The notes: generated by a model not told the origin, from the letters alone. 64,000 nt of DNA from Bacteroidales bacterium (GCA_017962275.1 JAGCVQ010000089.1:62-64061); one strand, 5' to 3'. Positions 3,001 to 59,998 are shown, counted from the stretch's first letter. Program-made: numbers and translations.

Positions 3001-5865
3001 GACGATGGTTTCGACAGTGATGTTTAGGTCATACACCTTGCCCGTAAGGGTGCCGAAAAGGCCGACCACAGACCGGGTTGAATTAAGTCGGGCGAGAGTA
3101 TGGTTATTGCCAAGGAATGTGCCCGCGAACCGTTTCGTGCCGATAGGAATCCAGTTGGATGTGATATCGGACAAGTTGATGTCGTTGGTGAGGCTGAAGA
3201 CGATGTCCTGCACATAATGCGGAAGGAGATAGTCTTTATAGATTACCATGTAGTTCCCGTTCACGATGTTTCGCAGATTATTCAGATCATGAAAGTTGTC
3301 AACGGTCATCGTGTCGGACAGCGGAAGACTGTCTAATGCTAATCGTGGTGTACAGGCGGCGATGGCGTCCATGCGGACGGACGAGCTGTCAGTCCAAGTC
3401 AGTCGAGGGTAGTGTCCCTCCTCGTAGAGCCAGTCGTCGTCGCCCATATACTCTCGCACAAGGGCTTCGGGACCGATGAAGTAGCGTGTAGCTACTTTTG
3501 TCGCCCCTTCACAGACGGGATTGACATGGTAGTCGTTGTAAAACGTTGTATATGCTGATTCCACCTCCACTTGATTGCCAGTAAGCACACCGACATTGTA
3601 ACAATCTGTAGAGACGTGGTGCACCGCGTCTCTACAGTGTCCAAGGGGGTGTACGGTGCCATTGGCGGCCGTGATGTCCCCCGTGTTGAAGCATCGTTCA
3701 AGGATGCAGGTGTCGGCGTTCACATAGCCCACCAAACCGGCAGCGTACCCGCTGCCACTATTGACCACTTTGCAGCTGTTGAAACAGCCCGTGATGCGGA
3801 TGCTGCTGAGTGCCTCACTGTCTGTTCCCACCGAGCCTATCAGAGCGGCACAGTTGTCGCCGTTGAACTGTAGGGGCGTACCTGCGTGTGCGCCCTTGAC
3901 CACGGCGCAATTCTCGAAAGAACCGCCCATGACGTTGGTGGCCAAGGCGGCCGACGAACCTCTGCAGCCGGTGATGTGCGGGTCTTCGAGGATCAAATTG
4001 CTTATCTCGCCCTTGCTATAAACAAAGAGTGCACGATCGGTGCCGTTCGTCATCGTTAGGTTCATCAGCTTATGCCCCCGGCCGTCGTAAAAACCGGTGA
4101 AACAGGTGTCGGCGTTCTTGCCGATGGAGACCCAGTCACCCACGCTGGCAAGGTCGATGTCGGCGGTCTGTATCCAGTGAATGTGCGGAAGAGAGTCGTG
4201 AGGAATCAGGAAGCGGTGGTAAACGAAGTCCTGGTTTGCGTTGATGCCGTCGCGGAAGGCGAGGAAGTCTTCCAGATTGCTGATGAGGAAGGGGTTCTCG
4301 GCGGAACCGACGTACGGGGGGATGTTGATCACCGCATCGTAATAGCGGGTGCGTCCAGCCACCTCTACGGTGAGGCGCACCACACCCTGCTTTTGCAGAT
4401 AGACATTCCAGCTGTTGTCGGGCGCATAGAACTCTCTGCGGACAGCATCGGGCCAGAGACTGTCAAGGGTCCACGTAATATCCAGACTGTCACACCCTTT
4501 CCACAGCACGAACGACTCGGTGAGGTAGGAGAGTTTCATGTGCTTGCGCTCATTGTCATTCATGTTGTTGATGGTACTTTGGCCGTTGCCATTCGGTTTC
4601 ATGAAGACATCGAGAAACGGAACGAGGGCGGCGGTCACAATGGAATCTTGGGGGTAATCCAATTCGAGGCGGTAGGTGACATTTATCGGATCGTTGAATG
4701 GATCCGGGTAGGGGTAAACATTGCACAGATAGGTGTTTTTCCACAAGCTGGGCTTCTGATTTTTGATGTCGAAATACATCATGCTGTAATAGGTCATGTC
4801 GTAGGTGCTGAGGGCTGCGGCACCTCTATTGTCCCGCCAATCTGCCGGAACCCATGACGATCCAGGAATTGACGGAAGGTCGCTCAGCTGCCAGTCGAAG
4901 TAGCAGGTGTCCACCCGGATGCTATCAACATCCGGATCATAGCTATTGGTGCTGTTAGGGGAGAGCGCATAGCCGTAGATGCCGCCTATGTGGTTGTTGA
5001 CAATTTCTTCGTCCGTGCCAATACCGCCGTTAGTTGGGTTCGCCCCCGAGAGGGCTGTGCCGACCATATCGGTGGTGCGGACAATCATGGAGGAGTAACA
5101 CTGACGCACGGTACCTTTCTCCACCTTGCCGACCAAGCCAGCAACATAGTCACCGGTGCAATCAACATGCCCGGAAGCGAAGCAAACGCTGACTTCGGGC
5201 AACAAAGTGTCATGGCGGGTCATCAGTCCGACCAAGCCGCCCACCTTGTCGCCGCTTGTGCGGATGCTGCCCTCGAAGAAACAGTCGTTGATATGGCCTC
5301 CTGAGAGTTCGCCCACAATACCGCCGATGTTGCTGGCACCACCTCTGATGTAGGAATTGACAATACCGAGTTTTTCGATGTGTGCATCCCCCTCCATTTT
5401 CGAAAAGAAGCCTACACCCACAGTGCCGTCCGGACAGTCGATGTACATACCGCTGATCGTATGCATATCACCGAGTAAGTGGCCTTTGAACACAACTGTC
5501 TCGGGCCAAACCGTCCATGTTGGGTCAATCTCACCGTCGCAGGCAGCCAGATTCCCCTGGTTGAGGATGATGTCATTCGGTATCAAGAAATACTTGCCTT
5601 CGCCGTAGGCGGGAATGGTGTCGTAGTCACCGTAGGTGGGAGGCGTTGTGCTACAGATGTACTCTTTGCTGTAGCCATATTTGTAAAAGTAGAACTCGTT
5701 GCCAGTACTGAGGCAGTTGGCAAAAGCCACTAATTCATTAGCCTTACGGATCCTGTACGGATTATTGGGCGCGCCATGACCACCCTGTGCAAAAACGGAG
5801 TTGCCGTAGAACCAAAAGGTCATTAATATAGTGATGCAAGTACTAAGTATAAATCTTCTTTTCAT
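1..5865 (-). CDS. Giant secreted GLUG-motif repeat surface protein. The N-terminal 1955 codons are in the window; the C-terminus lies beyond the window start.
   Basis: It is absent from the ORF track because it runs off the left edge. My reverse-strand translation from ATG 5865-5863 gives MKRRFILSTCITILMTFWFYGNSVFAQ, a signal peptide. No listed minus-strand ORF in 1-5865 uses this frame, which fits an uninterrupted frame. The protein carries many (V/I)GG(L/I)(V/I)G...C(Y/F)N.G(I/V) units, matching the GLUG motif. The + strand ORFs here are antisense artefacts. Confidence 0.8.
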   Translation of the reverse strand, partial: MKRRFILSTCITILMTFWFYGNSVFAQGGHGAPNNPYRIRKANELVAFANCLSTGNEFYFYKYGYSKEYICSTTPPTYGDYDTIPAYGEGKYFLIPNDIILNQGNLAACDGEIDPTWTVWPETVVFKGHLLGDMHTISGMYIDCPDGTVGVGFFSKMEGDAHIEKLGIVNSYIRGGASNIGGIVGELSGGHINDCFFEGSIRTSGDKVGGLVGLMTRHDTLLPEVSVCFASGHVDCTGDYVAGLVGKVEKGTVRQCYSSMIVRTTDMVGTALSGANPTNGGIGTDEEIVNNHIGGIYGYALSPNSTNSYDPDVDSIRVDTCYFDWQLSDLPSIPGSSWVPADWRDNRGAAALSTYDMTYYSMMYFDIKNQKPSLWKNTYLCNVYPYPDPFNDPINVTYRLELDYPQDSIVTAALVPFLDVFMKPNGNGQSTINNMNDNERKHMKLSYLTESFVLWKGCDSLDITWTLDSLWPDAVRREFYAPDNSWNVYLQKQGVVRLTVEVAGRTRYYDAVINIPPYVGSAENPFLISNLEDFLAFRDGINANQDFVYHRFLIPHDSLPHIHWIQTADIDLASVGDWVSIGKNADTCFTGFYDGRGHKLMNLTMTNGTDRALFVYSKGEISNLILEDPHITGCRGSSAALATNVMGGSFENCAVVKGAHAGTPLQFNGDNCAALIGSVGTDSEALSSIRITGCFNSCKVVNSGSGYAAGLVGYVNADTCILERCFNTGDITAANGTVHPLGHCRDAVHHVSTDCYNVGVLTGNQVEVESAYTTFYNDYHVNPVCEGATKVATRYFIGPEALVREYMGDDDWLYEEGHYPRLTWTDSSSVRMDAIAACTPRLALDSLPLSDTMTVDNFHDLNNLRNIVNGNYMVIYKDYLLPHYVQDIVFSLTNDINLSDITSNWIPIGTKRFAGTFLGNNHTLARLNSTRSVVGLFGTLTGKVYDLNITVETIVGADTAGAVCAILNGGRIENCSVKKYNNTSDNMYGVTVGGIAGVSLTANDSIIGCFNYVDVMGIQCIGGIIAKDGNVKNSANLGDITGTADCPYIGGLIGTMNNVQCTMYNCFNTGIVTAQPGNPNADNWVGGLVGLIQNPECRIQNCYNAGIVNGENRKYVGGICGAIDGSTTNNPSPITIQNCYVSNTVRSTGLHLGSIVGSSITNNPSPITIHNCYYDKQMSTAGGIDGSDQTGVAKGLPTDTMMGEQYMKPLLGDDSSDSIWYYQDDYYPQLKGVQSINAILSKASAMRAKLYTTETYSTVSHQFTVNYSDGGSWQRIGGSNCVSIGTTPSNNLIAVTIPSTNNHPAQGYITLGFRGAGTNDPVYRKVQLWVNLTEANPIIIKNADELKKFRTIINQGSGFYRITDQTFLTSTPNNSSASQYVRITDGGRNLYFKLNANVDLAFHGTTSSGQQYNVLDLWTSIGTPNRPFLGHFDGAGHTVSNFLIPGSDNQGFFGYIYGGSVKNLTIAGAITNHNTTGNHRAILCGYLNSGTIRNCFITQDVGSNYHSPSRLSAVTGRNLGFICGTNHYGRIVYCQTDMTQIENATYTHGSCFGGICGYNDFGTIDSCRSHLSINPGVTIDTVGGIVGYNHNGILVADTSYNNSYNKSIMSYVGCIAGYSNGTQSEIRSCYVDEQSRVPSHGNYIGGVVGKMDNGIIDGCEHLGTIIAEGNYIGGIAGLCTKGTRINGCFNAGTVCESKSDDYVGGIVGSLTDSSSVSACFNSGLVMGHYFVGGLIGHLSEACHFTDCYHTGIVKGISLVGGIVGLQQDPTVSSGYGYSAGWVEGSSMVGAVCGYTSDTTMLHNLHYDKQMCSYKGVNEEDVTGVTAHSTSGMMGITFASDRPWIYSEGMYPRLSTISNTDASQVSALALQIGDIYNLSYNPNTSYTLPSYTPVTGTNFKWSKVKNSDNAATLSGTTLTPSGMRNFMRIKATKSIFSNGENHTIPLRAVQLSFGIS
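2675..2702. repeat. Heptamer tandem repeat (TACATTG)x3 plus TTCATTG inside the GLUG CDS
   Basis: attg-TACATTG-TACATTG-TACATTG-TTCATTG encodes MNNVQCTMYNC on the minus strand. The same heptamer array occurs intergenically at 10989-11016. Confidence 0.85.
3607..3636. repeat. REP type B embedded in frame inside the GLUG gene
   Basis: The sequence is TGTAGAGACGTGGTGCACCGCGTCTCTACA. It is codon-aligned and encodes exactly CRDAVHHVST. A 22-nt core is identical to the intergenic copy at 58388-58409. Confidence 0.8.
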
Positions 5866-6231: not shown

Positions 6232-7386
6232 TTATGCTATTCTGTAGCTAGAAGGAGTGTCCTTTCCCTGGGCTTTGAAGGCCTTGGCCATGGATGCTTG
6301 AGAGGAAAAACCACACTGCTCGGCGATGTCGGCCAGACGCTTGTCTGGATGTTGGTGGATAAGGCTGATGGCATGGCGCACACGGTGTAGACTAATCATG
6401 TCGTAGAACGACTGATAACCACAGCGACGGATTACTTCGGCAAGGTATTTGCTGTTGGTGCCCAACCGCGAGATGAGCACGTCGCTGGTGATGTGTGGCT
6501 CGGTGAAAATTTTCTCTTCTGTGAGCAGAAGTTCGAGACGGCGGCCCAGATCATCAAAGCGGCTATCAGAGACATGGTGGACTATGTCGGTATTTTCGAG
6601 TTTTTCTGCATTCGTTTGGCTTTCATTGTTTTCTGTGTTTTCTGAATCATTTAGGTATTCGGTAAAATCAGAATTTTCTGTACTAGCAACCTTTCTCCAG
6701 GGATTCAGCGTGAGGATGCAGAACCACACATTAGCCACAGTGAATAGGATATCTCTTCCAAATTTTACCCATACATCGTCTGCATAGAAATTGATGGCCA
6801 ATAATATAAGTACCAAAGTGGGTATCCAGCGGATAAGATTGGCGAGACGTACAGGGAAGTCGTCGCTGTCGGCATATTGGTCCTCGTTGGCTCGCCTTAC
6901 TGCATTCCTGATTCTCAGTGCCATACGTACGGAAAGGGAAAAGTATGCCATAAAGAGGAGACTCACAGCTCCTACGGTCCAAATGCGCCATCCTTCGGGC
7001 ATGGAAATGAGATTGATTGCCTGCAGGAACATTGGCAGTAGCACCACCACAGCGGGTATAAACAGCCAATAACCATTGAGTCGGTGTTTGTTTTCCGGAA
7101 AGAAGTACCCCTCGCACATGATGAGCATTTGGATGGAGAAGAAGAGTAGCGAGAAAGCGTTGACGTAAAGCAGCGCGTCGCTGTCGCCAATTTGCAGCAG
7201 GTAAGGCAGTTCAAAAATCTGCAGCAGGTAAATGATACCCACCGCCTTTTGGGCAGGAAACAGCTCGTAGAAGTGTTCCCTGTAGGCCTCCGGCTTGTAA
7301 AACCACTTCAGCAGCCACCCATAAAGGTGAGTGATGATGAAGGCCAGGTTGGCGGAGTAAAGTATCATGTATGCTGTGTCGGTCAT
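6232..7386 (-). CDS. Membrane-anchored AraC-family (HTH_18) transcriptional regulator
   Basis: The N-terminal ~220 aa are polytopic and hydrophobic. The C-terminus (LISRLGTNSKYLAEVIRRCGYQSFYDMISLHRVRHAISLI...AEQCGFSSQASMAKAFK) is a classic AraC double HTH. Confidence 0.8.
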   Translation of the reverse strand: MTDTAYMILYSANLAFIITHLYGWLLKWFYKPEAYREHFYELFPAQKAVGIIYLLQIFELPYLLQIGDSDALLYVNAFSLLFFSIQMLIMCEGYFFPENKHRLNGYWLFIPAVVVLLPMFLQAINLISMPEGWRIWTVGAVSLLFMAYFSLSVRMALRIRNAVRRANEDQYADSDDFPVRLANLIRWIPTLVLILLAINFYADDVWVKFGRDILFTVANVWFCILTLNPWRKVASTENSDFTEYLNDSENTENNESQTNAEKLENTDIVHHVSDSRFDDLGRRLELLLTEEKIFTEPHITSDVLISRLGTNSKYLAEVIRRCGYQSFYDMISLHRVRHAISLIHQHPDKRLADIAEQCGFSSQASMAKAFKAQGKDTPSSYRIA

Positions 7387-7405: not shown

Positions 7406-7435
7406 TGTAGAGACGCGCCATGGCACGTCTCTACA
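7406..7435. repeat. REP type B variant between the lpxD stop and the AraC-like gene start
   Basis: The sequence is TGTAGAGACGCGCCATGGCACGTCTCTACA. It has the same outer arms as the other REPs with a GC-rich centre. Confidence 0.8.
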
Positions 7436-7437: not shown

Positions 7438-8400
7438 TTACGTTAATCGTTTCTTGATCTCCTCCAATTCCTTGAAAAGATCAGGCAGCTTGCGCATCAT
7501 GGCCATCTCGCGCCAGCGTGCGGGGGCGTCACCGGCAGGCATTCCGAACAGAGTCCTGCCCTCCTCCTTCACATCCTTATCGATGGCCGAAAGAGCTAAC
7601 AACACCGTGCCTTTGGCCACGTATAGGTCTTTGTTGACCGCTGCCTTTGCCCAGATTTTGCAATCGTCGTCGATGTAAGTACAGCCGGCAATGCCGCATT
7701 GGGCGCCGAGGAGCACGCGCTTGCCGATGTGCGTGTCGTGGCCCACCTGCACGAGGTTGTCGAAGATGGTGCCGTCGTCGATGTAAGTGGTGCCGGAGAC
7801 GCCGCGGTCGATGCAGCAGTTGCAGCCGATCTCCACATCGTTGCCGATGTAGGTGTCGCCGCAGGAGGTCAGCTTCAGCCAACCTTCGGGCCGCTTCTGG
7901 TAGTAGCAGGCGTCGGCGCCGACAGTGGTGTTGGAATGAATGACCACATTGTCGCCGATGACCGTGTTGGCATAGATGCTCACGTTGGAGTGGATGATGC
8001 AGTTTTTGCCGATGCGCACGTTCTCGCCGATGAAAACCAGCGGCTGGATGACCGTGCCCTCGCCGATGACCGCGCTCGGGTGGATGGCGGTGTCTTGCGG
8101 CGTGAAATGCACGAAGTGCTCTACGACGTTGAGATAGTCGCGGAGCGGATCTTCGGTAACGAGCAGAACCTTGCCTTCAGGACATTCCGCATCTTCACTG
8201 TTGATCAGGATGACAGAAGCCTCGCTTTGCAGGATGCGGTTGTAATACTTCTCGCTGTCCACAAAAGTGAGATCTCCTGTGCGGACGGAGTGCAACTCAT
8301 TAACTCCTGTCACCCTCACGGAGGCGTTCCCCTTGACGGTGACAGGATGTCCAATCAGTTGTATCAGTTCGTCTAAAGTAAGCGACTGACGAAAAATCAT
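7438..8400 (-). CDS. lpxD: UDP-3-O-acylglucosamine N-acyltransferase (LpxD-type left-handed beta-helix)
   Basis: The N-terminal LpxD-like domain contains VTGVNELHSVRTGDLTFVDSEKY. It is followed by long hexapeptide repeats (IGENVRIGKNCIIHSNVSIYANTVIGDNVVIHSNTTVG...) and a C-terminal helical tail. Confidence 0.8.
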   Translation of the reverse strand: MIFRQSLTLDELIQLIGHPVTVKGNASVRVTGVNELHSVRTGDLTFVDSEKYYNRILQSEASVILINSEDAECPEGKVLLVTEDPLRDYLNVVEHFVHFTPQDTAIHPSAVIGEGTVIQPLVFIGENVRIGKNCIIHSNVSIYANTVIGDNVVIHSNTTVGADACYYQKRPEGWLKLTSCGDTYIGNDVEIGCNCCIDRGVSGTTYIDDGTIFDNLVQVGHDTHIGKRVLLGAQCGIAGCTYIDDDCKIWAKAAVNKDLYVAKGTVLLALSAIDKDVKEEGRTLFGMPAGDAPARWREMAMMRKLPDLFKELEEIKKRLT

Positions 8401-9087: not shown

Positions 9088-9118
9088 TGTAGAGACGCAA
9101 AATGTTGTGTCTTTACCA
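9088..9118. repeat. Degenerate REP type A overlapping the helicase 3' end
   Basis: The sequence is TGTAGAGACGCAAAATGTTGTGTCTTTACCA. On the minus strand the far arm reads TGG TAA, which supplies the last Trp codon and the stop of the helicase. Confidence 0.65.
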
Positions 9119-10945
9119 ATCTTCATCCTCGGTAATCATCTCCAATTTCGTGGCAATTTGGAAATATTGACGGAAAATTTCCGCGCCGTCACGCAATTGG
9201 TCCGACGTGCTGGATTGCCGGCACAATTCGTCGCAGAAGGTGAATATCTTCTCGTTGGCGATGACGATGCACTTCACGCGGGCGCGGGTGAGAGCCACGT
9301 TCAGCCGGTTCGGACTGTAGAAGAACTCCAGACGGTCCTCCACCTCCGCCGGGTTGGAATTGGACATGCTGTAGAGAATGTAGTCCTTCTCCTGTCCTTG
9401 CATCCGCTCTACGGTGTCGATAAAGAGCTGGTTGACAGTCTCTTCTGAAATGTCTGGACGCTCCGAAAGGGCCCGTTTGATTTCGCGGATCTGCGCCCGG
9501 TACGGACTCATAATCCCGATTTCACTGACCGGCACGCCATTGTGCAGCAGGTCCGAAACGATATCGGCGGTGAGGTTGGCCTCGTAAGGCGACCTTCCGA
9601 GCGAGTCGAACTCGTGATGCACCACCAACAGCTCGTTGGAGGGGTGGTTGACGATTTGCGGCGCGGCGGGACAGACAAAGCCGGTGTAGGGCCGTTCCAA
9701 TGTGTGCGCGGCGGAAATCCGGTCGCCGTAAAACAGCCGGTTGGGGATGTGTATCAGGTTGTCGTTCAGGCGGTAAGATTGGTCCAACAGGGTGATGTCC
9801 TGCGGGTAGAGGTCGACGAGCCGTTTGAAGATGCTGCAGTCGAAAAACTTGTTGCCGGTGTCCTGCGGCACGATGGGGTCGAGCTGCTGGTGGTCGCCCA
9901 CGAAAATGAGCCGACGTCCGCGCATGATGGTCGGCAATGCCAACGGGATGCTCATCTGCGCGGCCTCGTCCATGATCACGTAGTCGAATTGCCAGCCCTC
10001 TAACTTTTTGGAAGCAGGAGAACAAAGCGCGAACGGAGTTCCGCCGATGACAAACCCCGCTTTCGAATACTCGTCACTGTGTTGATAATCATACAGTTTC
10101 AACGATTTCTTGCGCGTGATGTACGGATTGTGCACGATTTCGTCCGCTTGGTATCGCTCCCCGACCTTCACCACCATGGAGGCATCCTGCAACTCATTCG
10201 CGATGGCGTTGAGACAGTTGTTGATGGCGGTGTGTGTGGGCGCGGTCACAAAAACCTTCTTGCCCATTTTCATCAGATAATAGACGATTTTCGCGATGGT
10301 GAAGGTCTTGCCCGTGCCAGGAGGCCCTTGAATCAGGTGGAAGTAATTGCAGGTGAAGGCTTTGCGTATGGCCTCGTTTTGCGATGGGTTGCCGCAGCAA
10401 GGCGACGGCGATTCGCGGTACTGGTTGCGGAACTGTCCCGTGAGGAAACGTTCGAGATGGTCGCAGAAGTCGGGATTGCCGTAGAGATTCTCCCACGTGG
10501 AGCGCAGCAAACGTTGGGTGATGTCGGTGTTTACGGCGTTGATTTCCCAGCCATCGAGGGGAAAGCAGCTGGTGTCCAATACGTTGCGTTGATACTCGTA
10601 GCTGCTGGTTTGCAGCACGAAGTCGTTCACCCCGTCCTGCTCGATTTCCATGAGGAAGCTGAGCGGCCCGTGGCTGAGTCGCACCTGCGTGCCCTCGCGG
10701 AATTTGGAGATGTTGTATTCGCAGTGGATGCGCACTCGGTTGATGTAGCGTTTTGGCAGCACCGGCGCGGGAAGCCAGCGGGTGGGAGCCCCGTCGAAGA
10801 ACTCGAACTCCGCGTGCAGGTTGGTCATGGTGTAACCCCGGTTCACCCGTTCCTGCAACGGCCTGCTCATAAGATCGTTGTACTCTTCGTCCTGTCGTTG
10901 CTGCTGGATTTCGATGGCGGAGGATAGTTGGGTTAGGAAGGACAT
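9113..10945 (-). CDS. Superfamily-1B (Upf1/Dna2-like, AAA_11/AAA_12-type) DNA helicase
   Basis: Motif I is IQGPPGTGKT and motif II is IMDEAAQ. Other helicase motifs are FVGDHQQLDPIV, SYRLN, TVERMQGQEKD and LNVALTRAR. The last two codons and the stop overlap a degenerate REP. Confidence 0.85.
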   Translation of the reverse strand: MSFLTQLSSAIEIQQQRQDEEYNDLMSRPLQERVNRGYTMTNLHAEFEFFDGAPTRWLPAPVLPKRYINRVRIHCEYNISKFREGTQVRLSHGPLSFLMEIEQDGVNDFVLQTSSYEYQRNVLDTSCFPLDGWEINAVNTDITQRLLRSTWENLYGNPDFCDHLERFLTGQFRNQYRESPSPCCGNPSQNEAIRKAFTCNYFHLIQGPPGTGKTFTIAKIVYYLMKMGKKVFVTAPTHTAINNCLNAIANELQDASMVVKVGERYQADEIVHNPYITRKKSLKLYDYQHSDEYSKAGFVIGGTPFALCSPASKKLEGWQFDYVIMDEAAQMSIPLALPTIMRGRRLIFVGDHQQLDPIVPQDTGNKFFDCSIFKRLVDLYPQDITLLDQSYRLNDNLIHIPNRLFYGDRISAAHTLERPYTGFVCPAAPQIVNHPSNELLVVHHEFDSLGRSPYEANLTADIVSDLLHNGVPVSEIGIMSPYRAQIREIKRALSERPDISEETVNQLFIDTVERMQGQEKDYILYSMSNSNPAEVEDRLEFFYSPNRLNVALTRARVKCIVIANEKIFTFCDELCRQSSTSDQLRDGAEIFRQYFQIATKLEMITEDEDW

Positions 10946-17735: not shown

Positions 17736-17802
17736 CTTACTTTTATTAATTGTTTGATTTATAAATATTTATAACTATCTCAACCTAATATTTTTAAGGC
17801 CG

Positions 17803-17810: not shown

Positions 17811-17940
17811 CAATTTTTGTGGTATGATTTTCAGCGGTTGAAAAATTGTTGAAAAGAAAGGTTGTAAGGGTGTGACACGCCAGGGAAAGCAGTTGAGAAA
17901 CAAATTTTTGCGTCTTCACGTGTTGTATATATAAAAAATG

Positions 17941-17948: not shown

Positions 17949-17969
17949 CCTTTGCAAAAGAAGACGATT

Positions 17970-18266
17970 ATGAGCACGGAAATGATAGAGACCATCCGCG
18001 AGTATTTCAAGACCCAGCCGGTGTTGAAGGCTTGGATCTTCGGTTCGTATGCGCGTGGGGAGGAAACGGAGGACAGTGACGTGGACATTTTGGTGGTATA
18101 TGATGACAGCAAGCCGGTTGGATTGATGAAAATAGCCAACATGTACGTCAATTTGAAAAAACTCCTCCATAGGGAAGTTGATCTCGTTGAAGAGGGTACG
18201 CTTTTGCCATTTGCGGTTGAAAGTGCAAATCGTGATAAAAAACTGATCTATGAGAGAGCCTGTTAG
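17970..18266 (+). CDS. mntA: Minimal nucleotidyltransferase antitoxin (MntA-like)
   Basis: FGSYARGEETEDSDVDILVVYDD matches the GS-x10-DxD NTase motif. ATG 17970 lies 21 nt after the -7 box at 17941-17948. The 3' end overlaps the next gene by 17 nt. Confidence 0.85.
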   Translation: MSTEMIETIREYFKTQPVLKAWIFGSYARGEETEDSDVDILVVYDDSKPVGLMKIANMYVNLKKLLHREVDLVEEGTLLPFAVESANRDKKLIYERAC

Positions 18267-18603
18267 AGACAAAGAACGACTTCATCACATCTATGATGCC
18301 ATTAGTAGGATTCAAGGCAGAATTCCAACGTTAAATCTGGAAAGTTTACTTCAGGATGTATTAATCTATTATGGTGTCGTAAAAAACATTGAAATCATCG
18401 GAGAGGCCGTTTATAAACTCTCCAAGGAATTCAAGGAGGAGCATACTATGACCGCATGGGAGGATATTGAAGGTATGCGGCACGTGCTTGTGCATGACTA
18501 TTACAACATACAACCGGGGCGTGTGCTCCATGTTATAGAGAACGACCTCCCTCCTCTCAAAGCCCAAATTGAACAATATCTGTCCGAAATGGACGAACAA
18601 TAG
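18250..18603 (+). CDS. hepT: HEPN/DUF86 RNase toxin (HepT-like)
   Basis: It contains KNIEIIGEAVYKL and the Rx4HxY motif (MRHVLVHDYY). At 117 aa it is translationally coupled to the upstream NTase gene. Confidence 0.85.
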   Translation: MREPVRDKERLHHIYDAISRIQGRIPTLNLESLLQDVLIYYGVVKNIEIIGEAVYKLSKEFKEEHTMTAWEDIEGMRHVLVHDYYNIQPGRVLHVIENDLPPLKAQIEQYLSEMDEQ

Positions 18604-18611
18604 AATACTAT

Positions 18612-18675
18612 AACCCCCAATTTTTCACCAACCCCAAAAGAACACCAAAAGAGTGATTGAAATTATAACAGATTG
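18612..18675 (+). repeat. Left copy of a ~64-nt direct repeat bracketing the rayT/REP cassette
   Basis: The sequence AACCCCCAATTTTTCACCAACCCCAAAAGAACACCAAAAGAGTGATTGAAATTATAACAGATTG is about 80% identical to 19694-19758 by eye. Confidence 0.7.
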
Positions 18676-18736
18676 GCGGGGTTATAGAACGACAGATTAT
18701 TGCCATCCGCGGAGAAATGTGACGATTATCCCACGT

Positions 18737-18766
18737 TGTAGAGACGCAAAATTTTGCGTCTCTACA
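18737..18766. repeat. REP type A, perfect 30-nt palindrome
   Basis: The sequence is TGTAGAGACGCAAAATTTTGCGTCTCTACA. It lies about 100 nt upstream of rayT. Confidence 0.9.
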
Positions 18767-18868
18767 CAGGGTGTAAACCGATCCTGTTTACCTCAATTGT
18801 CGAAAAAAAGAAAACCCTTGAACAAATAAAACGTTGATTTAGCCGTCAGAACCTTAAAAACGAAAACA

Positions 18869-19462
18869 ATGACAAACGAATTATTCAAGAACCGGTATCG
18901 CATACCGTCCGCACGCGCACCTTGGCATGATTACAGGCACGGAACCTATTTCGTGACCATCTGTACAAAAAACAGAGAACATTCTTTCGGGGAAATCACA
19001 AACGATGCCACTGGAAATCACATAATGAGTCTGTCGGAAATTGGCAAAAATGCCGATGTGTGCTGGCAAGAAATCCCATCGCATTTCCCGCACGTCCAAA
19101 CGTTGTCTCGGGTAATCATGCCCAACCATATTCATGGGATTTTGACCATTAACCCCATCGAAGGGACGCGAAATTTTGCGTCTCTACAACCGGGAGAATC
19201 GCAACAGAATGGGCAAACACGACAAACCAACAACGTCATCGTGCCAAACAACCGATTCGGCCCTCAATCGAGAAATCTGGCATCGGTGATGCGCGGATTC
19301 AAAATCGGTGTCACCAAATTCTCACGGCAAAACCGAATTCCGTTTGAATGGCAGCCTCGATATTACGAACACCTCATCCGAAACATGGACGAGTTGTATT
19401 TCATCATGGATTACATTGAAAACAACGTGGCTAAATGGGAGGAGGACGGATTTTATGGGTGA
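18869..19462 (+). CDS. rayT: REP-associated tyrosine transposase (RayT; IS200/IS605-like Y1 HUH enzyme)
   Basis: It contains GTYFVTICTKNREHSFG, the HUH motif MPNHIHGIL and the catalytic-Tyr region RYYEHLIRN. REP palindromes flank it on both sides. Confidence 0.85.
   Translation: MTNELFKNRYRIPSARAPWHDYRHGTYFVTICTKNREHSFGEITNDATGNHIMSLSEIGKNADVCWQEIPSHFPHVQTLSRVIMPNHIHGILTINPIEGTRNFASLQPGESQQNGQTRQTNNVIVPNNRFGPQSRNLASVMRGFKIGVTKFSRQNRIPFEWQPRYYEHLIRNMDELYFIMDYIENNVAKWEEDGFYG
19160..19188. repeat. REP type A copy embedded in frame inside the rayT CDS
   Basis: The sequence is GAAGGGACGCGAAATTTTGCGTCTCTACA. The right arm matches 15/15 and the left arm is partly degenerate. It encodes EGTRNFASLQ, between the HUH and Tyr motifs. 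Confidence 0.75.
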
Positions 19463-19470
19463 CGCACGTG

Positions 19471-19497
19471 AATATTGCGGTCCCCGACCGCAATATT
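19471..19497. repeat. Perfect 12-bp hairpin directly after the rayT stop
   Basis: The sequence is AATATTGCGGTC-CCC-GACCGCAATATT. It could be a terminator or a second palindrome type. Confidence 0.6.
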
Positions 19498-19589
19498 GTA
19501 ATCCGCCCGCGGGAAACGCAACGGAACACCCACGGTGTTGAAACGTGAAACATTGCCATCTGCGGGGAAACGCAACGGAATACCCACGT

Positions 19590-19619
19590 TGTAGAGACGC
19601 ATAATTATGCGTCTCTACA
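19590..19619. repeat. REP type A, perfect palindrome with a variant centre
   Basis: The sequence is TGTAGAGACGCATAATTATGCGTCTCTACA. It lies downstream of rayT. It is preceded by a ~38-nt flank (ATTGCCATCYGCGG.GAAA...CCCACGT) that is shared with the 18737 copy. Confidence 0.9.
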
Positions 19620-19693
19620 AATTGTGCAACATCAAAATTTTCCGTAATATGACCGCAACCCAATAATTTTCGTATTTTCGCACCCTGAAATAT

Positions 19694-19758
19694 CAACCCC
19701 AATTTTTCACCAAACCCCAAAAAACATTAAAAAGAGAAACTGAAATTATAACATATTG
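19694..19758 (+). repeat. Right copy of the direct repeat bracketing the rayT/REP cassette
   Basis: The sequence is CAACCCCAATTTTTCACCAAACCCCAAAAAACATTAAAAAGAGAAACTGAAATTATAACATATTG. Confidence 0.7.
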
Positions 19759-19997
19759 ACATAAAGCGTTTTCGCTTTTCTTTGTTGCACGAGAATCTGG
19801 ACAATTTTCAGCAATACCACAGAAAGAAACGAACCGCTTGCGATGTAAATCGTGGGCTTTTTGTTTGTGGTATAGGTAGTCCAGAACCTTTCGTGCAGTA
19901 CAAAACAGGCTCACGATTTTTTTGTGTTTGTGTTGGAAGGCGGAAACGGTTTATAACCGGCTGAAATCCAATTAGTACAAACATAAAAAAGAAGAGT

Positions 19998-22900
19998 ATG
20001 AAAAAAACGAAACACTGTTTTAGCCTTCTCATTATGATGATGGGCATCATGGGACTGTTCGCGCAAGAAGCGAATAACCTTTATCCAAAAGTCAAACGTC
20101 TCGAAGGACAAGGTAATGGAGGCAATTGGCTGGAAATCACCGAACAAACACGAGACAACATCATGTCTGGCGCACCCTGGAAAGTGCAGCAAGTGGAATA
20201 TGAACATGGTGCGTCTCCAGTGGTGGTTCGGGTAACAAATCCCTCTGAACTAAAGCCTTACGAATACTATTTAAGTTTAAATGATTATGACAACTTTTGG
20301 AAACTTAAATGGTATGATTCAACTGGTACGCAACTCGGTGAGTATATGTCGCAATATACTATCGAAGAAGGGAAAGAGGAAATTGTTGAAGGACATGGCA
20401 TTGCCATAACCATGAAGAACCATCCGTTTTCCATCCATGACAAAAATTTGGCGTTTCATGTTAGCACACACGGTGGAAATACATATCAAAACTATACACA
20501 TTACGCACAACCAGATCTAATCGGATCACAAGTGATATATCATGGTGATGTTCAGTGGTTGGATGGGTTGAAAGATGCCGAAACTTCCACTCCGGACAAC
20601 TGGATTCGTGCAGGACATTACAAATCAACACATTATTGGGTATGTTACTCTGGCCAACCGAGTATGGCTGAATGTGACTACTCGAAGTGGCGCACCGAAG
20701 ATTTCTTCAATCTCTATAACACGACAACTACTTGGGGAGGGACAAATAGCACAAGAGGATACATGGACTACTACGGCCAGTATGAGCATGTGGCGCAGGG
20801 TTCATGGGCACCCTATATGCTGAGTTCTCCATACGACGGAGGTCCTAAAGCGCAATTTCTTACCAAAGACGTGATATTTGGGAACAACATGCCCTCCCCC
20901 GCCTATTACGATTTCCGTTTTCTTGAATCGGTACCCAACAGGTCAAGGTATAACCAAACATTGACAAATCTTTATTCTGTAGATATAATATTCACCCCAG
21001 ACACCTCTCTATGGACTCGTGCACTCGTCTTGGAATCCGGTTCCGGAACTGTCGAATCGAACTATAAAGTCATTCAGCATTTTAATGGACAAACTTATCA
21101 AAATATCCGACATGAACCCAAGGCCTGCCCTTCGGTCGACAAAAACGGCAATCCCGACAACAGTGGGACATACGGATTTGGTTGGTTTCCTGGATATGCC
21201 ATCAATGTGGAGACTGGCGAACGTCTCAACATTATGTTCGCCGAGAACTCCGAAGACGAATACAACCATGGTAACGACATGATTTTCAACCCTACAAATG
21301 TATATGCCTTCAGAAAAAACAATGAGGACAACTACATATTAGACGATGCCGGCAACCCTATCCCCATGACCCAAGAAGAATACAACGCGTTGTACTCCAG
21401 CTCTTTATGTGACCATGAAATCTTGGGCGAACCTTTGTACGGTGGCAGGCATTATGTTTATATTTGCGGAAGCTCCGGCAACACGTGCAATGTTGCTCAG
21501 CAACGTAACTACAATAACGATGGCTATACAACAACCGTTCAAGGAGTTAGCCACGGTGGAGTTTTTACCGGCTCAGATGGGGTGTCTTATCCGTATTACG
21601 AATGTGGAGTTTATGATGAGGGGAAATGGTTGAAGGAAAAATTCAATACCCTATACGAGACCGACTATGACAGGAACTCTCGCAAGGCTAAAAAGATGCA
21701 GGTGTTCAACAATGTAATGTGGACAGGTATCCCGATGCCGAAACAGGGGCTGGAAACAGAATGGTTGGCAAACGAGGCCACTGTCAGCATCCGAGTATCA
21801 AGACCATTCATGAAATACACATCTGCAGTGGGCACTGGACCTGATCATCCTGTTAACAACAACGCGCCCCTGTTCTCTTTTACCACCAATGATTTATATG
21901 TGGCACAAAGCCACAACCTCTTCGACTTATCTAATATCATAGTCAGTTGTGACAATCGAATTGATGTCAATAATATAGACGCACCAGTGTCGCCTCACAG
22001 TGGTGCGTGGTTCTATGATGAAGAAACTCACAATGCTGACTATGTTGTACCGAAAGGGGCTGACAAACGACCGTTATTTAATTATTCATTCTGGATGGGC
22101 GGCAAAGATGGACAAAACAACTTGCATGTTTTTGCAGAAAGATTCAGACAACAAGGCTATGAAACTTGGCCTGGACCATTATCGACCATAGACGCTTCCA
22201 TTGATGAGGAAACATTGCGAAAATGGGACCGCACTTTCAAGATAACACGAAAGGAGGTGCTGGAGTTCATGGCTTGCCGTCAAAATCCCGAATACACTGT
22301 TCCGCAGCATATCCTTGAATGGCCCGCACATGGCGATACCACTAAGGGCCAAGCCTGGTTACTTGCCCCCTTTATTGACATCGACGGTGACAACCATTAT
22401 GATCCCACACAAGGTGACTATCCTGACTTTCCAGGTGACATGGCACAATTTGTTATCTTCAACGATAATTATGCACAACACGGAGAGAGTCAAGGGGCAC
22501 CTATGGGGGTTGAGGTTCATGTGATGGTGTATGCTTTTGATGCGCCGGAAGATTCTATCATGAATAATACGCTCTTTATTAAATACAAGTTATTCAACCG
22601 TTCACAAAACGAATACCACCAGACATATATCGGCTTATGGAATGACTGGGATTTAGGTTATGCTTACGATGATTATGTGGGCTGTGATGTTATGAAGAAT
22701 ACAGCTTATTGTTACAACGGGTCTGAAATTGATGGAACTGGCCAGTATTGGGCGTACGATTCCTTATGGCCTGTGCAGACTCTCACGCTACTCTCAGGTC
22801 CGCTAATGCCCGCCGACGGACAAGACAACCCTGCTTATACCAGTAGTTCAGATTGTTCAACGTTTATGAACAATGGACTCAATGAATATGGCATAAACGG

Positions 22901-28104: not shown

Positions 28105-28110
28105 CAGTCG

Positions 28111-31293: not shown

Positions 31294-32580
31294 ATGAATT
31301 TCGTACAAGAATTGAGATGGCGCGGCATGTTGCACGACATCATGCCCGGAACCGAAGAGTTGTTTAACAAAGAAGTCTGTTCCGTCTATCTGGGCATCGA
31401 CCCGACGGCGGATTCACTGCATATCGGCCATTTGGTGGGCATCATGATGCTCTCGCACCTGCAGCGTTGCGGCCACCGGCCTATTGCCTTGCTTGGCGGC
31501 GCTACCGGCATGATTGGCGATCCCTCCGGCAAGAGCCAAGAGCGTAACCTGCTGGACGAAGCGACGTTGCGTCACAACCAGGAGTGCATCAAGAAGCAGC
31601 TGAGCAAGTTCCTCGACTTCGACAGCAAGGAACCCAACGCAGCCCTGTTGGTCAACAATTACGACTGGATGAGCAAGTTCTCCTTCCTGGAGTTTATCCG
31701 CGATGTCGGCAAACACCTGACTGTCAACTATATGATGGCCAAGGATTCCGTGAAGAAGCGTTTCAACGGCGAAGGCGACGGCATGTCGTTCACCGAGTTC
31801 TCCTACCAGCTGGTACAGGGCTACGACTTTCTGCATCTCTACCAGACGCAGAACTGCAAGGTGCAGATGGGCGGCTCCGACCAGTGGGGCAACATCACCA
31901 CCGGCACGGAGCTCATCCGCCGTATGCTCAACGGCGAGGCCTACGCGCTCACCTGTCCGCTCATCACCAAGGCAGACGGCGGCAAGTTCGGCAAGACCGA
32001 GAAGGGCAACGTCTGGCTTGATCCCGCCCGCACCTCCCCGTATGCCTTCTACCAGTTCTGGCTCAACTGCTCCGACGACGACAGCAAGCGCTATATCCGC
32101 ATCTTCACTCACTTCATGAAGGAGGAAATCGAGGAAATGGAGCGTCAGCATGATGCCGAACCACATTTGCGTATCCTACAGAAGGCGCTGGCTAAGGATT
32201 TGACGGTGCGCGTGCACTCGCAAGAGGACTACGACGCGGCCGTCAACGCCTCCGAAATCCTCTTCGGCAAAGGCACTGCCGAGAACCTCGCGGCCCTCTC
32301 AGAGGAGATGTTCCTCTCTGTGTTCGAAGGTGTTCCGCAGTTCGAGGTGCCGATGTCCGTCCTCGACGAGACCTGCGGCGTGGTGGATTTCCTCGCCAAG
32401 CACACTCAGGTTTTCAATTCCAACGGCGAAGCCCGCCGTATGCTGAAAGACAACGGCGTCGCCATCAACAAGACCAAAGTGAAAGATGATAAAATGATGA
32501 CGAAAGACGACCTCCTCAACGGCAAATACGTCCTCGTCCAGAAAGGCAAGAAGAATTATTATATTGTGAAATTCATTTAA
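31294..32580 (+). CDS. tyrS: Tyrosine--tRNA ligase
   Basis: The HIGH region is [10 protein letters not shown] and the KMSKS-like motif is KFGKT. A C-terminal S4-like domain is present. 428 aa. Confidence 0.93.
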
Positions 32581-32586: not shown

Positions 32587-32616
32587 TGTAGAGACGCAAT
32601 ATTTTGCGTCTCTACA
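32587..32616. repeat. REP type A (one arm mismatch)
   Basis: The sequence is TGTAGAGACGCAATATTTTGCGTCTCTACA. It begins 7 nt after the tyrS stop. Confidence 0.85.
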
Positions 32617-57720: not shown

Positions 57721-57746
57721 GTGGCGTTGGGAACAGGTGATTAAGC

Positions 57747-57772
57747 AGGGACGTAAAATTTTGCGTCTCTAC
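57747..57772. repeat. Degenerate REP type A overlapping the trmH-family stop
   Basis: The sequence is AGGGACGTAAAATTTTGCGTCTCTAC. The TAG stop of the gene is the TAG of the REP arm. Confidence 0.65.
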
Positions 57773-58302
57773 CGAATGGCCAATTGTCGGATTGCCTCCC
57801 ACAGGGTGATGCCGGTGGCGACGGCCACGTTCAGCGAATGTTTCGTGCCGAACTGCGGGATCTCGACGGCCGCGTCGCACAAAGGCAGCAGCTCCTCCGA
57901 GATGCCGAACACCTCGTTGCCGACAAACAGCGCGACCTTTTCATATTGGGCGAAGTTGAAATCCTGAAGCATCACGGAACCGTCGGTCTGCTCCACTAAG
58001 ATAATAGCGTAACCTTCTGACTTTAACTCCGTTGCAAGCTCCGCCACATTCTCCTTGTACACCCATTCCACGCTTTCGGTCGCTCCGAGGGCGGTCTTGC
58101 TGATCTCCTTCTGCGGGGGCGTGGCGGTGATGCCGCACAGGTAGAGCCGCTCCACGTTGAAGGCGTCGCACGTCCGGAACGCCGACCCTACATTGTGCAT
58201 GCTGCGGATGTTGTCCAACACCAGCACGATGGGGCTTTTCCCCTGCTGCTTGAATTCCTCCGGGGTCACCCGCCCCAATTCCTCCATACTCAACTTTTTC
58301 AT
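57769..58302 (-). CDS. SpoU/TrmH-family RNA 2'-O-methyltransferase
   Basis: It contains LDNIRSMHNVGSAFRT, GNEVFGIS and IPQFGTKHSLNVAVATGI. The TAG stop lies inside a degenerate REP. Confidence 0.85.
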   Translation of the reverse strand: MKKLSMEELGRVTPEEFKQQGKSPIVLVLDNIRSMHNVGSAFRTCDAFNVERLYLCGITATPPQKEISKTALGATESVEWVYKENVAELATELKSEGYAIILVEQTDGSVMLQDFNFAQYEKVALFVGNEVFGISEELLPLCDAAVEIPQFGTKHSLNVAVATGITLWEAIRQLAIR

Positions 58303-58386: not shown

Positions 58387-58416
58387 CGTAGAGACGTGGT
58401 GCACCGCGTTTCTACT
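58387..58416. repeat. REP type B (two arm mismatches) abutting the dnaB stop
   Basis: The sequence is CGTAGAGACGTGGTGCACCGCGTTTCTACT. It overlaps the dnaB TAG at 58415-58417. Confidence 0.75.
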
Positions 58417-59998
58417 AAAATGCAAAATCATCCTCGTATCCCTGCTGCGACGGGTCTCCGCTACCGCTGCCGCCGTCGTCGCCGTTGGCCGCACTGTCGT
58501 AGTATTGGGCCGAGAAGTTCTCGTTGGGGGTGATGCCCGCGCCGGGGGAGACGTAGCTGCCGCCCTCGCCGAACGAACCCTCGCTCACATCGCAGAACTT
58601 CGTGAACTGGCTCTGGAAGCGTACTTTCACGTTGCCGGTGCTGCCGTGACGGTTCTTCTCGAACATGATTTCCGCCATGCCGTCGCTCGGGGTGTTGTCC
58701 TCGAAAGTGTCCAAATGGTAGTATTCCGGGCGGTAGATGAAGAGCACCATGTCGGCGTCCTGCTCGATGGAACCGGACTCACGCAGGTCGGACAATTGCG
58801 GGCGTTTGGAGCCGCCGCGGGTCTCCACGGCACGACTCAACTGAGAAAGTGCGATGACGGGAATGTTCAGCTCCTTGGCCAACGCCTTGAGGGATCGGGA
58901 GATATAACTGATCTCCTGTTCGCGGTTGCCGCCGTGCTTCGAACTGTCGGTGCCGGCCTGCATCAGCTGCAGGTAGTCGATGATGACCATCTGGATGTCG
59001 TATTTGTGTTTCAGACGGCGGCACTTGGCGCGCAGGTCGAACACGGAAAGCGCCGGGGTATCGTCGATGATGAGGTTCGAGCTGTTCAGCTTGCTGACGT
59101 TTTCCCACAGCTTCGACCACTCCACATCCGAGAGCGTACCCTTCGAGATATGGTCGGAGGGGATGCCTGATTCAATGGAGAAGAGACGGTGAACCAGCTG
59201 GGTAGCAGACATTTCCAGCGAGAAAAAGGCAATAGGCTGATCGAAATCGATGGCGGCGTTGCGGGCCACGGAGAGCACGAAGGAGGTCTTACCCATACCG
59301 GGACGGGCGGCGAGGATCACGAGGTCGGACTTCTGCCAACCGCCGGTTTTCTCGTCGATGGCGCGGATGCCGCACGGCACACCCTGTAATTCGTCCTGCG
59401 ATTCACGGATTTCCGACAGCTCGCTGAGGGCGGTGCTTACCACATCGCCCAGCTCCTTGCTGTCGCGGTGCAGGTTGCTCTCCACGATGGAGAAGATTTT
59501 CGTCTCGGCGGCGTCAAGCAGCTCCAACACGTCCCGGCTCTCGTCGTAGGAGTCGGTGACAATGGTGTTGCACTGACGGATGAGCTCGCGCAGGATGAAT
59601 TTCTCCATCACAATGCGGGAGTGGTATTCCACGTTGGCGGCGGAATTCAGCCGGCTGGTCAGACCTGCCACGTAGGAGGCGCCTCCGCAGAGTTCCAGCT
59701 GCTTGTTCTTTTTCAGCTGGTTGGTGACCGTCAGCACATCGATGGGCTGCGAAGCGGAGAAAAGTTGTCGAATCGCGGTGAATATCTGTTGATTAGCTTC
59801 CACATAGAACATTTCGGGGCGCAGCATGGCGAGCACCTCGGTCACGGCGTTGTCGTCGATCATCAGGGCGCCGAGCACCGCCTCCTCGAACTCCACGGCC
59901 TGCGGGGTGAGCTTGCCGGTGGTGCCCAAAAGCGTGTCGATGCGGTTATATGACATTGTCCGAGAGGGACGGTTTGTTGTAATCGTTTCGTTATCCAT
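58415..59998 (-). CDS. dnaB: Replicative DNA helicase DnaB
   Basis: Walker A is ILAARPGMGKTSF. Other motifs are IIDYLQLM, ALSQLSRAVE and SGSIEQDADMV. It carries an acidic C-terminal tail of about 60 aa and no intein. Confidence 0.93.
   Translation of the reverse strand: MDNETITTNRPSRTMSYNRIDTLLGTTGKLTPQAVEFEEAVLGALMIDDNAVTEVLAMLRPEMFYVEANQQIFTAIRQLFSASQPIDVLTVTNQLKKNKQLELCGGASYVAGLTSRLNSAANVEYHSRIVMEKFILRELIRQCNTIVTDSYDESRDVLELLDAAETKIFSIVESNLHRDSKELGDVVSTALSELSEIRESQDELQGVPCGIRAIDEKTGGWQKSDLVILAARPGMGKTSFVLSVARNAAIDFDQPIAFFSLEMSATQLVHRLFSIESGIPSDHISKGTLSDVEWSKLWENVSKLNSSNLIIDDTPALSVFDLRAKCRRLKHKYDIQMVIIDYLQLMQAGTDSSKHGGNREQEISYISRSLKALAKELNIPVIALSQLSRAVETRGGSKRPQLSDLRESGSIEQDADMVLFIYRPEYYHLDTFEDNTPSDGMAEIMFEKNRHGSTGNVKVRFQSQFTKFCDVSEGSFGEGGSYVSPGAGITPNENFSAQYYDSAANGDDGGSGSGDPSQQGYEDDFAF

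Follow-up and report, generated by a model that had tools for sequence, protein, structure and literature searches.

A 64,000-nucleotide (nt) stretch of DNA from a Bacteroidales bacterium (GCA_017962275.1 JAGCVQ010000089.1:62-64061; hereafter the window; G+C content 51.8%) contains at 18,612-19,758 a locus which is very probably a REPtron of the TnpA-REP subclass 2.4 or RAYT group 4 type, belonging to an uncultured ruminant-gut Bacteroidales. A REPtron combines a Y1/HUH gene for a repetitive extragenic palindromic (REP)-associated tyrosine transposase (rayT or tnpA-REP) with cognate GTAG-footed palindromes beside the gene and copies elsewhere. An earlier note on this DNA had proposed such an arrangement, and we found all of its parts: a RayT-type gene at 18869..19462, REPs on either side of it at 18737 and 19590, and dispersed copies in the window. 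The assignment to subclass 2.4 is suggested by a motif signature and by features unique to this subclass. Quentin 2018 (BMC Genomics 19:475, PMC6006769) characterised subclass 2.4 by NH[IFV]H, WQ and YIxNNP as motifs, by proteins averaging 194 amino acids (aa), by a variable region between the HuH and Tyr motifs and by REPs with a 'double foot' of 5' GT[AG]G and 3' C[TC]AC. According to the same study, the subclass uniquely has a REP within the tnpA-REP gene that leaves the frame unbroken; it occurs in Cyanobacteria, Bacteroidetes and scattered phyla and corresponds to what Bertels et al. 2017 (GBE 9:2110, PMC5581495) called RAYT group 4. Compared with this description, the window RayT has NHIH, WQ and a YIxNN-type motif, a length of 197 aa and a single gene copy in the window, and the locus shows an in-frame REP insert, double-foot REPs and a Bacteroidales host.

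The open reading frame (ORF) at 18869..19462 lies on the plus strand, and its 197-aa product is, as predicted from motifs and modelled fold, a Y1/HUH protein of the TnpA-REP type. H87-I-H89 forms the HUH metal-binding motif (NHIH), followed by W161-Q162, the catalytic Y182 within YIENNV, and N186. In an alignment of 29 homologues H87, H89, W161, Q162, Y182, I183 and N186 were unchanged throughout. When aligned with the E. coli TnpA-REP structure 4ER8, Y182 paired with the tyrosine of DYIYINP and the HUH segment with EHMH. RYYEH (aa 164-168) had been considered as the Tyr motif and was dropped, since this alignment and the published motif table both pointed to Y182 in YIENNV. The only NCBIfam match of the window RayT was NF047646, the REP-associated tyrosine transposase family (E 4.8e-11), which was matched by all 29 aligned relatives. 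Similarly, a sequence search of the PDB gave 4ER8 as the sole meaningful match (E 0.0046; E 5.4e-6 with a RayT family profile). An AlphaFold model built on the family alignment had a mean predicted local distance difference test score of 75.9 and was confident except for residues 1-10 and 99-126. In a Foldseek search of the PDB its top match was 4er8_A (E 2.4e-6, root-mean-square deviation (rmsd) 2.5 A, TM 0.51/0.60). Structures of TnpA from IS200/IS605 insertion sequences (IS) were significant matches too, but at rmsd 7-15 A. The window rayT thus looks intact and, by these predictions, catalytically competent. The 64 kb contained no second rayT. An identical RayT is on record on five metagenome contigs, at the same syntenic locus in the four listed.

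The palindrome has the consensus TGTAGAGACG-N10-CGTCTCTACA and is laid out as T-GTAG-AGACG...CGTCT-CTAC-A, with a 13-bp stem, a 4-nt loop and a double foot of 5' GTAG and 3' CTAC. Ten copies lie within the window. A search with fixed arms, any 10-nt centre and up to three mismatches returned eight sites, vs none in 100 dinucleotide-preserving shuffles of the window; the ninth and tenth copies, at 57744-57773 and 17892-17919, lie beyond this search. The copy at 17892-17919 agrees with the consensus at 22/28 positions, and 20 shuffles contained no 28-mer within seven mismatches of the consensus. With ten copies against none expected from the pattern search and the shuffles, the palindrome is strongly over-represented in the window.

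Three copies are perfect 30-nt palindromes, and as single-stranded DNA the perfect copies fold into 13-bp hairpins with energies between -13.5 and -14.0 kcal/mol and z near -9. When the entire window was scanned for perfect stems of 10 bp or more, the output comprised just three REPs and two further hairpins. The upstream REP (18737..18766, TGTAGAGACGCAAAATTTTGCGTCTCTACA) is of type A, defined by the centre CAAAATTTTG and its near variants, and is a perfect 30-nt palindrome (-13.6 kcal/mol, z -9.1). It starts 132 nt and ends 102 nt before the rayT start codon, a position that is kept in relatives. The downstream REP (19590..19619, TGTAGAGACGCATAATTATGCGTCTCTACA, type A' with the centre CATAATTATG) is likewise a perfect palindrome; it sits 128 nt past the rayT stop codon, and the related contigs L125 and L127 have the identical variant at the identical place. 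The two had been described as perfect copies of one sequence, which applies to their symmetry but not to their identity, as two mutually compensating centre bases differ. The internal REP (19159..19188) lies in frame within rayT, where it encodes EGTRNFASLQ; its right arm is intact and its left arm decayed (GTAG to GAAG).

Six of the seven further copies reported earlier are dispersed, the seventh being the internal one. All were present, namely at 3607..3636 (centre TGGTGCACCG), 7406..7435 (centre CGCCATGGCA, which is TGCCATGGCG on the minus strand), 9088..9117 (type A, right arm decayed), 32587..32616 (type A, centre CAATATTTTG), 57744..57773 (type A, left arm decayed) and 58387..58416 (centre TGGTGCACCG, decayed). 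The more decayed type-A copy at 17892..17919 (GTTGAGAAACAAATTTTTGCGTCTTCAC), an eighth one, is located at the left junction of a variable segment of about 11 kb. Type A had been recognised correctly, but the second type of the earlier note lumped two centres, TGGTGCACCG, which occurs twice, and TGCCATGGCG, which occurs once on the minus strand. The dispersed copies are all solitary 30-mers, and a REPIN architecture, i.e. an inverted REP doublet with a short spacer, was not found among them. A longer hairpin or REPIN around the upstream REP (18690-18810) was considered and dropped: only the 30-mer folds reliably there, and its flanks have no convincing extended stem. The imperfect REPs at 3607, 9088, 57744 and 58387, as well as the one at 7406, contain G.T oppositions, which make one strand fold better. 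In four of the five this is the plus strand, whatever the gene orientation, in a sample too small to interpret. Being G-rich, the plus strand probably corresponds in sequence to the leading strand and the lagging-strand template. The whole window was without a match to any known RNA family in Rfam.

The REPs adjoining rayT are longer than the dispersed ones and carry a 5' extension of 38-39 nt (ATTGCCATCYGCGGGGAAAYGCAACGG....CCCACGKT). Upstream of the gene the extension (ATTGCCATCCGCGGAGAAATGTGACGATTATCCCACGT) occupies 18699..18736 on the plus strand and is the non-REP part of a 54-nt module, which consists of a 39-nt stretch and a left half-REP. Downstream of the gene about 1.7 of these modules stand in tandem (19498..19589, plus strand) as direct repeats at 54-nt spacing. 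A decayed copy that had been placed at about 19505-19552 is real and represents a single 54-nt unit, in which the 39-nt stretch is followed by the decayed left half-REP TGTTGAAACGTGAAAC at 19536-19551. The module also occurs inside the coding region of relatives' rayT, where it gives rise to 18-aa repeats (VETQNVAIHG.xQR..DG). Neither the 39-nt extension nor the 54-nt module was found at the dispersed REP sites, and direct tandem half-REP modules of 54-nt period are confined to rayT loci. The cassette is bracketed by a 64-nt direct repeat on the plus strand, whose left copy (18612..18675) is 75% identical to the right copy (19695..19758), and this repeat is kept on both sides of the cassette in the relatives L127 and L131. 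Its outer limits coincide with the coordinates given in the earlier note. We discarded the idea that it is a dispersed element, as it occurs only at the rayT locus and its orthologues. Y1 transposition is not known to produce a target duplication. Segmental duplications do occur at the rayT locus, since one is seen in L127 (6649-7429): there a segment comprising the downstream REP and about 95 nt, of which 25 nt are the beginning of the 64-nt repeat, is tandemly duplicated, and its junction coincides with CCCAC, a microhomology shared with the 39-nt module's end. Besides, a perfect 12-bp hairpin unrelated to the REP (AATATTGCGGTC-CCC-GACCGCAATATT, 19471..19497, plus strand) begins 9 nt past the rayT stop. 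It is also conserved in L127 and may be a terminator or a 3'-end structure.

In L125, L127 and L131, whose RayT is 71-76% identical to that of the window, rayT lies between an MNT/HepT toxin-antitoxin pair and the gene of a very large protein secreted by the type IX secretion system (T9SS). All three have a REP about 130 nt upstream, at least one inside rayT and another about 130 nt downstream, and their internal REP is a perfect 30-mer. The embedded copy, which the earlier note had not placed in frame within rayT (nor the one at 3607 within a giant ORF), is common among homologues. Among the best 120 of 1614 homologues 109 had both landmarks, HuH and Tyr, and in 92 of these 109 a clear REP-encoded peptide was found between the landmarks with a strict pattern, with about nine more being degenerate. 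In relatives the HuH-Tyr insert measures 18-122 aa and comprises 1-4 REP-derived units. Most homologues translate the palindrome as VETQNFASLQ, some as CRDAKFCVST; as two reading frames are used, it is the DNA that is conserved and not the peptide. In the AlphaFold model the REP-encoded loop between the HUH and Tyr motifs is the disordered part, which agrees with the view of a peripheral extension in the 2018 paper (PMC6006769). Nearly always the embedded copy has a type-A centre (codon triplets QNF 72, QDF 25, QNL 18 and QNI 14), in a set that was retrieved by similarity to the window RayT and may be biased to some degree. Pedobacter helvus (L133) has internal copies only within 20 kb and no flanking copy, and the rumen Bacteroidales L134, with a 52%-identical homologue, has copies only upstream of rayT and inside it, with no dispersed copy within 20 kb. 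The upstream and internal REPs of L134 (9867-9980 and 10286-10352) form units of 45-46-nt period with a GTAG foot on the first only and a CTAC foot on the last only, which looks like an opened-up double-foot palindrome.

It is conceivable, if on balance doubtful, that the REP embedded in rayT is a conserved 'seed' or cis-element and not a tolerated accident. We raise this idea because over 90% of the top homologues throughout Bacteroidota keep the embedded copy, nearly always as type A, and because it is kept in Pedobacter and in a rumen genome without dispersed copies in the 20 kb covered. If true, inheritance and transfer alike would convey the enzyme together with its substrate as one unit, and the embedded copy would spawn lineage-specific REPs with new tops and invariant arms. 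This would account both for the arms shared by about ten phyla and for the differing tops at one site in close relatives. Expression of rayT might, in addition, be subject to feedback from the embedded hairpin.

The constancy of the arms became evident from a scan of one genome per species (596 Gb) for the exact pattern GTAGAGACG-N10-CGTCTCTAC, for which about nine chance matches are expected by arithmetic. The identical 9+9-nt arms were present at 120 or more loci in about ten phyla. Among the matches listed, Bacteroidota and Cyanobacteria predominated, next to Chloroflexota, Acidobacteriota, Ignavibacteria, Spirochaetota, Desulfobacterota, Planctomycetota and more. The next three pairs were Watson-Crick despite differing sequence in 108 of 128 of these matches; therefore the foot and the lower stem are constrained in sequence, the top only in structure. 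The type-B centres of the window were found again in other Bacteroidales genomes. Dividing the copies into two subfamilies, as done previously, was a simplification, since the arms are constant and the tops vary freely here and in other genomes; what had been called subfamilies amounts rather to different versions of the hairpin top.

To follow single sites, we compared the window with five relative lineages at 82-92% DNA identity, found via their tyrosine-tRNA ligase (protein 97-98% and aligned DNA segments 81-92% identical). Behind the stop codon of the ligase gene tyrS, the window and L142 have a REP with the centre CAATATTTTG. L145 has the same arms around the type-A centre CAAAATTTTG, one base off that of the window. 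In L143 and L144 identical arms enclose GTGTACACAC, which differs from the window's centre at eight of ten bases and is one base short of a palindrome, and no REP is present at this site in L136-L141 and in L146. Orthologous sites behind the ABC-F and 5'-nucleotidase genes hold a REP in some lineages and none in the window. L143 has centres of its own (CGATTAATCG and GTGTRCACAC, twice each), and L145 carries type A four times in 21 kb. Such lineage-specific repeated centres are the pattern expected of within-lineage copying, which says nothing of present-day movement.

Most copies had been reported to follow stop codons, and this was right for the dispersed ones, five of which (7406, 9088, 32587, 57744 and 58387) adjoin, overlap or supply a stop. 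The 7406 copy lies 2 nt past the stop of the ORF 7438..8400 (minus strand) and 19 nt before the start of the ORF 6232..7386 (minus strand), and the 32587 copy 6 nt past the stop of the tyrosine-tRNA ligase gene (31294..32580). The 9088 copy includes the TAA stop (9113-9115) of the helicase ORF 9113..10945 (minus strand), the CTAC foot of the 57744 copy forms the TAG stop of the ORF 57769..58302 (minus strand), and the end of the 58387 copy supplies the TAG stop of the ORF 58415..59998 (minus strand). In these last three cases the stop is made from the CTAC/GTAG foot and belongs to the upstream gene. REPs that give TAG stops and REPs inside ORFs were also described by Di Nocera et al. 2013 (PMC3733652). 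The 3607 copy is located in frame in a giant minus-strand ORF, which has its ATG at 5865, extends beyond the first base of the window and comprises 1954 aa or more; there the copy encodes CRDAVHHVST. A homology search with the 300 aa around it returned two fragmentary proteins only. The placement near stops could result from target choice or from selection for a 3'-end hairpin, and both the stable hairpins at mRNA 3' ends and the stop codons supplied probably arose as by-products or were selected as side functions.

The following mechanism is modelled on the enzymes of E. coli, Stenotrophomonas and Marinomonas (PMC8266576). In single-stranded DNA, for instance at the replication fork, the palindrome would fold, and RayT would bind the folded strand by reading the GTAG foot and the invariant lower stem (GAGACG/CGTCTC). 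The HUH histidines would hold a metal ion while Tyr182 would cut beside the hairpin, giving a 5'-phosphotyrosine intermediate, and strand transfer would then either reseal the DNA or carry the hairpin to a new site. With foot and stem fully palindromic, both strands would present the same substrate, without the asymmetry between REP and inverted REP (iREP), which would fit the singletons and the absence of inverted doublets. Pairing would be the only constraint on the upper three stem pairs and on the loop, which would explain 'subfamilies' with different centres.

Several points weigh against an active REPtron of this type. The window RayT scored 42.7 bits against NF047646, below the curated cutoff of 80, and 15.8 bits against Pfam Y1_Tnp (PF01797), below the threshold of 23. 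As the curated thresholds were missed, family membership rests on profile, fold and motifs. PF01797 was matched by 18 of the 29 aligned relatives and covers class 2 TnpA-REP poorly according to Quentin 2018 (PMC6006769). Group 4 RAYTs have been associated with only about 14 flanking 16-mer copies per replicon (PMC5581495). RayT enzymology has all been done on groups 2 and 3 (PMC8266576); biochemical or in vivo activity data for subclass 2.4 were not found in the literature searched, and the activity of the window RayT is presumed. The locus had been called apparently active, which was too firm: REP turnover was seen between related genomes, but no polymorphism among the near-identical strain contigs. 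In the recovered parts of these contigs (four over 8869-29462 or 15344-29462, and L142 over 21294-42580) no recent REP movement was visible, at 99.98-100% identity to the window and hence uninformatively. Moreover, the internal REP lacks GTAG (GAAG instead) and four dispersed copies are decayed, so the REP system could be quiescent in the window lineage. The locus would then be a relic, with a RayT which is domesticated or decaying and has ceased to move REPs and with hairpins that persist as useful or neutral structures in mRNA 3'-end protection, termination or stop-codon supply, and the pattern in the relatives would reflect old events and loss. The uniform strain contigs, the decayed copies and the position of REPs at gene 3' ends are compatible with such a relic, as is the housekeeping-like behaviour of group 4 RAYTs, with which few repeats are associated (PMC5581495). 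We nevertheless regard it as unlikely in view of the intact ORF with all its catalytic residues, the three palindromes that are still perfect over 30 nt, and the lineage-specific tops repeated within a genome (CGATTAATCG in L143, type A in L145 and the window), which suggest within-lineage copying. Moreover, a T-run of the classical intrinsic terminator follows none of the REPs in the window.

Two further explanations appear far less probable. If the locus were an ordinary IS200/IS605 insertion sequence, the gene would be its TnpA and the flanking palindromes its ends. Palindromes on both sides of the gene, the weak Y1_Tnp match and the significant Foldseek hits to IS200/IS605 TnpA could be read in this way, but the best match in structure and in sequence is TnpA-REP and not TnpA-IS200, and the protein does not group with ordinary IS200 TnpA (sole NCBIfam match NF047646, best structure 4ER8). 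Nor does the locus have distinct ends of the IS type and multiple identical gene copies: both flanks carry the same symmetric hairpin, a single gene copy is present in the window, and the relatives hold the gene at a syntenic locus while their RayT has diverged to 71-76% identity. The window also has dispersed solo hairpins that lack a gene, no tnpB-like ORF adjoins rayT, and an insertion sequence is thus very improbable. Equally improbable is a coincidental association, in which the palindromes would be host regulatory or protein-binding sites unrelated to RayT, such as a CGTCTC-linked site. Some type IIS restriction enzymes recognise CGTCTC, and the arms indeed contain GAGACG/CGTCTC; besides, rayT was found within 8 kb at only 7 of 120 loci among the matches listed. 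Against a host site stands the in-frame palindrome that over 90% of the top homologues carry, in two reading frames, which links it to the gene at the DNA level. The copies flank the gene at conserved distances, and the taxonomic spread of the arms equals that published for RayT subclass 2.4. Dispersed REPs far from a single rayT are the normal picture of a REPtron (PMC8266576).

The rayT cassette is part of an 11.1-kb segment (about 17859-28978) that also contains the MNT/HepT pair (17946-18603), a gene for a T9SS protein of 2650 aa (19998-27950) and a 169-aa ORF (28228-28737, minus strand). This segment with rayT is missing from some relatives, which bears on the immobility of the gene: in L136-L141, L145 and L146 it is absent between SecDF and ABC-F. 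The empty site holds a REP and two half-REPs in L145 and a GTGG-footed palindrome in L146. Direct repeats bounding the segment were considered and dropped, since the similarity of the junctions is explained by the Bacteroidetes promoter consensus TAnnTTTG. In the leader of the giant T9SS gene (19763-19778) a small hairpin, AAAGCG-TTTT-CGCTTT, forms part of the stretch ATATTGACATAAAGCGTTTTCGCTTTTCTT, which is invariant in four relatives, and two more inverted repeats follow behind it (19814-19919), without a match in Rfam; the region may be a regulatory RNA or a leader. Within the gene a 147-nt (49-aa) tandem repeat of 2.5 copies (26013-26378) is consistent with a repeated 'CDSxxWNGxxYTxSGxYxQxF' domain in the translation.

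Furthermore, the window contains about 20 short tandem arrays with a period of 7 nt (in a few 8 nt) and 3-13 copies each. Their units all differ (GTTTATG, TGTACAT, GGTTACAT, CCCTCTAA, TCCCACG, AAGTTCC and others). Nearly all of them fill short spacers between ORFs, and three adjoin REPs. They include arrays at 9035-9064, 10987-11016, 12383-12409, 14549-14575, 30693-30815, 31256-31288, 32619-32651, 40257-40292, 43031-43077, 44518-44561, 48819-48861, 55010-55045, 56370-56417, 57003-57039, 57628-57717 and 60122-60147, and one in the giant ORF at 2361-2703. The array in the tyrS-nfeD spacer (TAACCCC / CCCTAAA-like) is kept in relatives with or without the REP. The arrays seem to be a genome-wide feature of the lineage that has no part in the REP system.

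REP/RayT systems are among the commonest bacterial repeats, and their enzymology comes from three proteobacterial enzymes of groups 2 and 3. Group 4 or subclass 2.4 is known from comparative genomics only; it is the sole group with its substrate inside the gene and the RayT group that is spread through Bacteroidota and Cyanobacteria. The window locus is a compact and intact candidate for experiments, with a 197-aa protein, a symmetric 30-nt substrate and natural variants of the top, and the related rumen genomes permit REP gain, loss and replacement to be scored at orthologous sites. For annotators of Bacteroidales metagenome-assembled genomes it matters that the palindrome yields spurious peptides (VETQNFASLQ, CRDAKFCVST) and supplies stop codons; it probably also breaks their assemblies. 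The locus leaves the current picture of REPtrons unchanged. What is added here is the site-level turnover in rumen relatives and the constancy of the arms across phyla; the conserved embedded copy is likewise of interest.

Among known systems, the REPtron of E. coli K-12 (group 2, subclass 2.2, 4ER8) resembles the window locus in the fold of its protein (rmsd 2.5 A), the HUH motif with one catalytic Tyr, the 5' GTAG foot, a single-copy gene beside REPs and dispersed REPs at gene 3' ends. The two proteins share only about 20% sequence identity. REPs of E. coli are imperfect palindromes with an essential bulge, are strand-specific (the REP is processed, the iREP is not) and form doublets in bacterial interspersed mosaic elements (BIMEs), whereas the REP of the window is a perfect palindrome that is symmetric with respect to both strands, stands alone in most cases and occurs within the gene as well. 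Perfect palindromic REPs with a GTAG foot, near-identical copies within a genome and several REP types per genome are shared with group 3 or subclass 2.5 of Pseudomonas, Stenotrophomonas and Marinomonas. In that group, however, the REPs are short, typically arranged as inverted doublets (REPINs) and present in hundreds to thousands of copies; there is no intragenic REP, and the motifs are DH[LF]H and YI[VI]ANP. With IS200/IS605 elements such as IS608 and ISDra2 the locus has in common the Y1/HUH core, the recognition of hairpins in single-stranded DNA and a tetranucleotide at the hairpin foot. These elements move with their gene, have distinct left and right ends, are multi-copy and often carry tnpB, and they have as TnpA a domain-swapped dimer of about 130-150 aa; no such trait was seen in the window.

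The GTAG and CGTC REPs surveyed by Di Nocera et al. 2013 (BMC Genomics 14:522) are similar in their GTAG stem-loops, TAG stops, in-frame REPs and preference for sites downstream of coding regions. In that survey GTAG repeats were found mainly in Proteobacteria and Cyanobacteria, and Bacteroidetes were listed for CGTC only. Unlike either class, the window palindrome has both tags, GTAG at the foot and CGTC in the stem. The closest counterpart is subclass 2.4 or group 4 itself. Here the Tyr motif of the window ends in V and not P (YIENNV; relatives have NNP or NNV), and the REP density of ten in 64 kb exceeds that of about 14 per replicon given for flanking 16-mers by Bertels 2017. The 54-nt module in flanks and coding sequence, the cross-phylum constancy of the arms and the site-by-site turnover are not described in the available parts of Quentin 2018. 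A later paper treating subclass 2.4 further was not found in the literature searched. The novelty that the earlier note had claimed for Bacteroidota was overstated, as the type had been described by Quentin 2018 (PMC6006769) and, as group 4, by Bertels 2017 (PMC5581495). Nothing essential differs, and the window locus belongs to the type published in 2018, Bacteroidetes and intragenic REP included.

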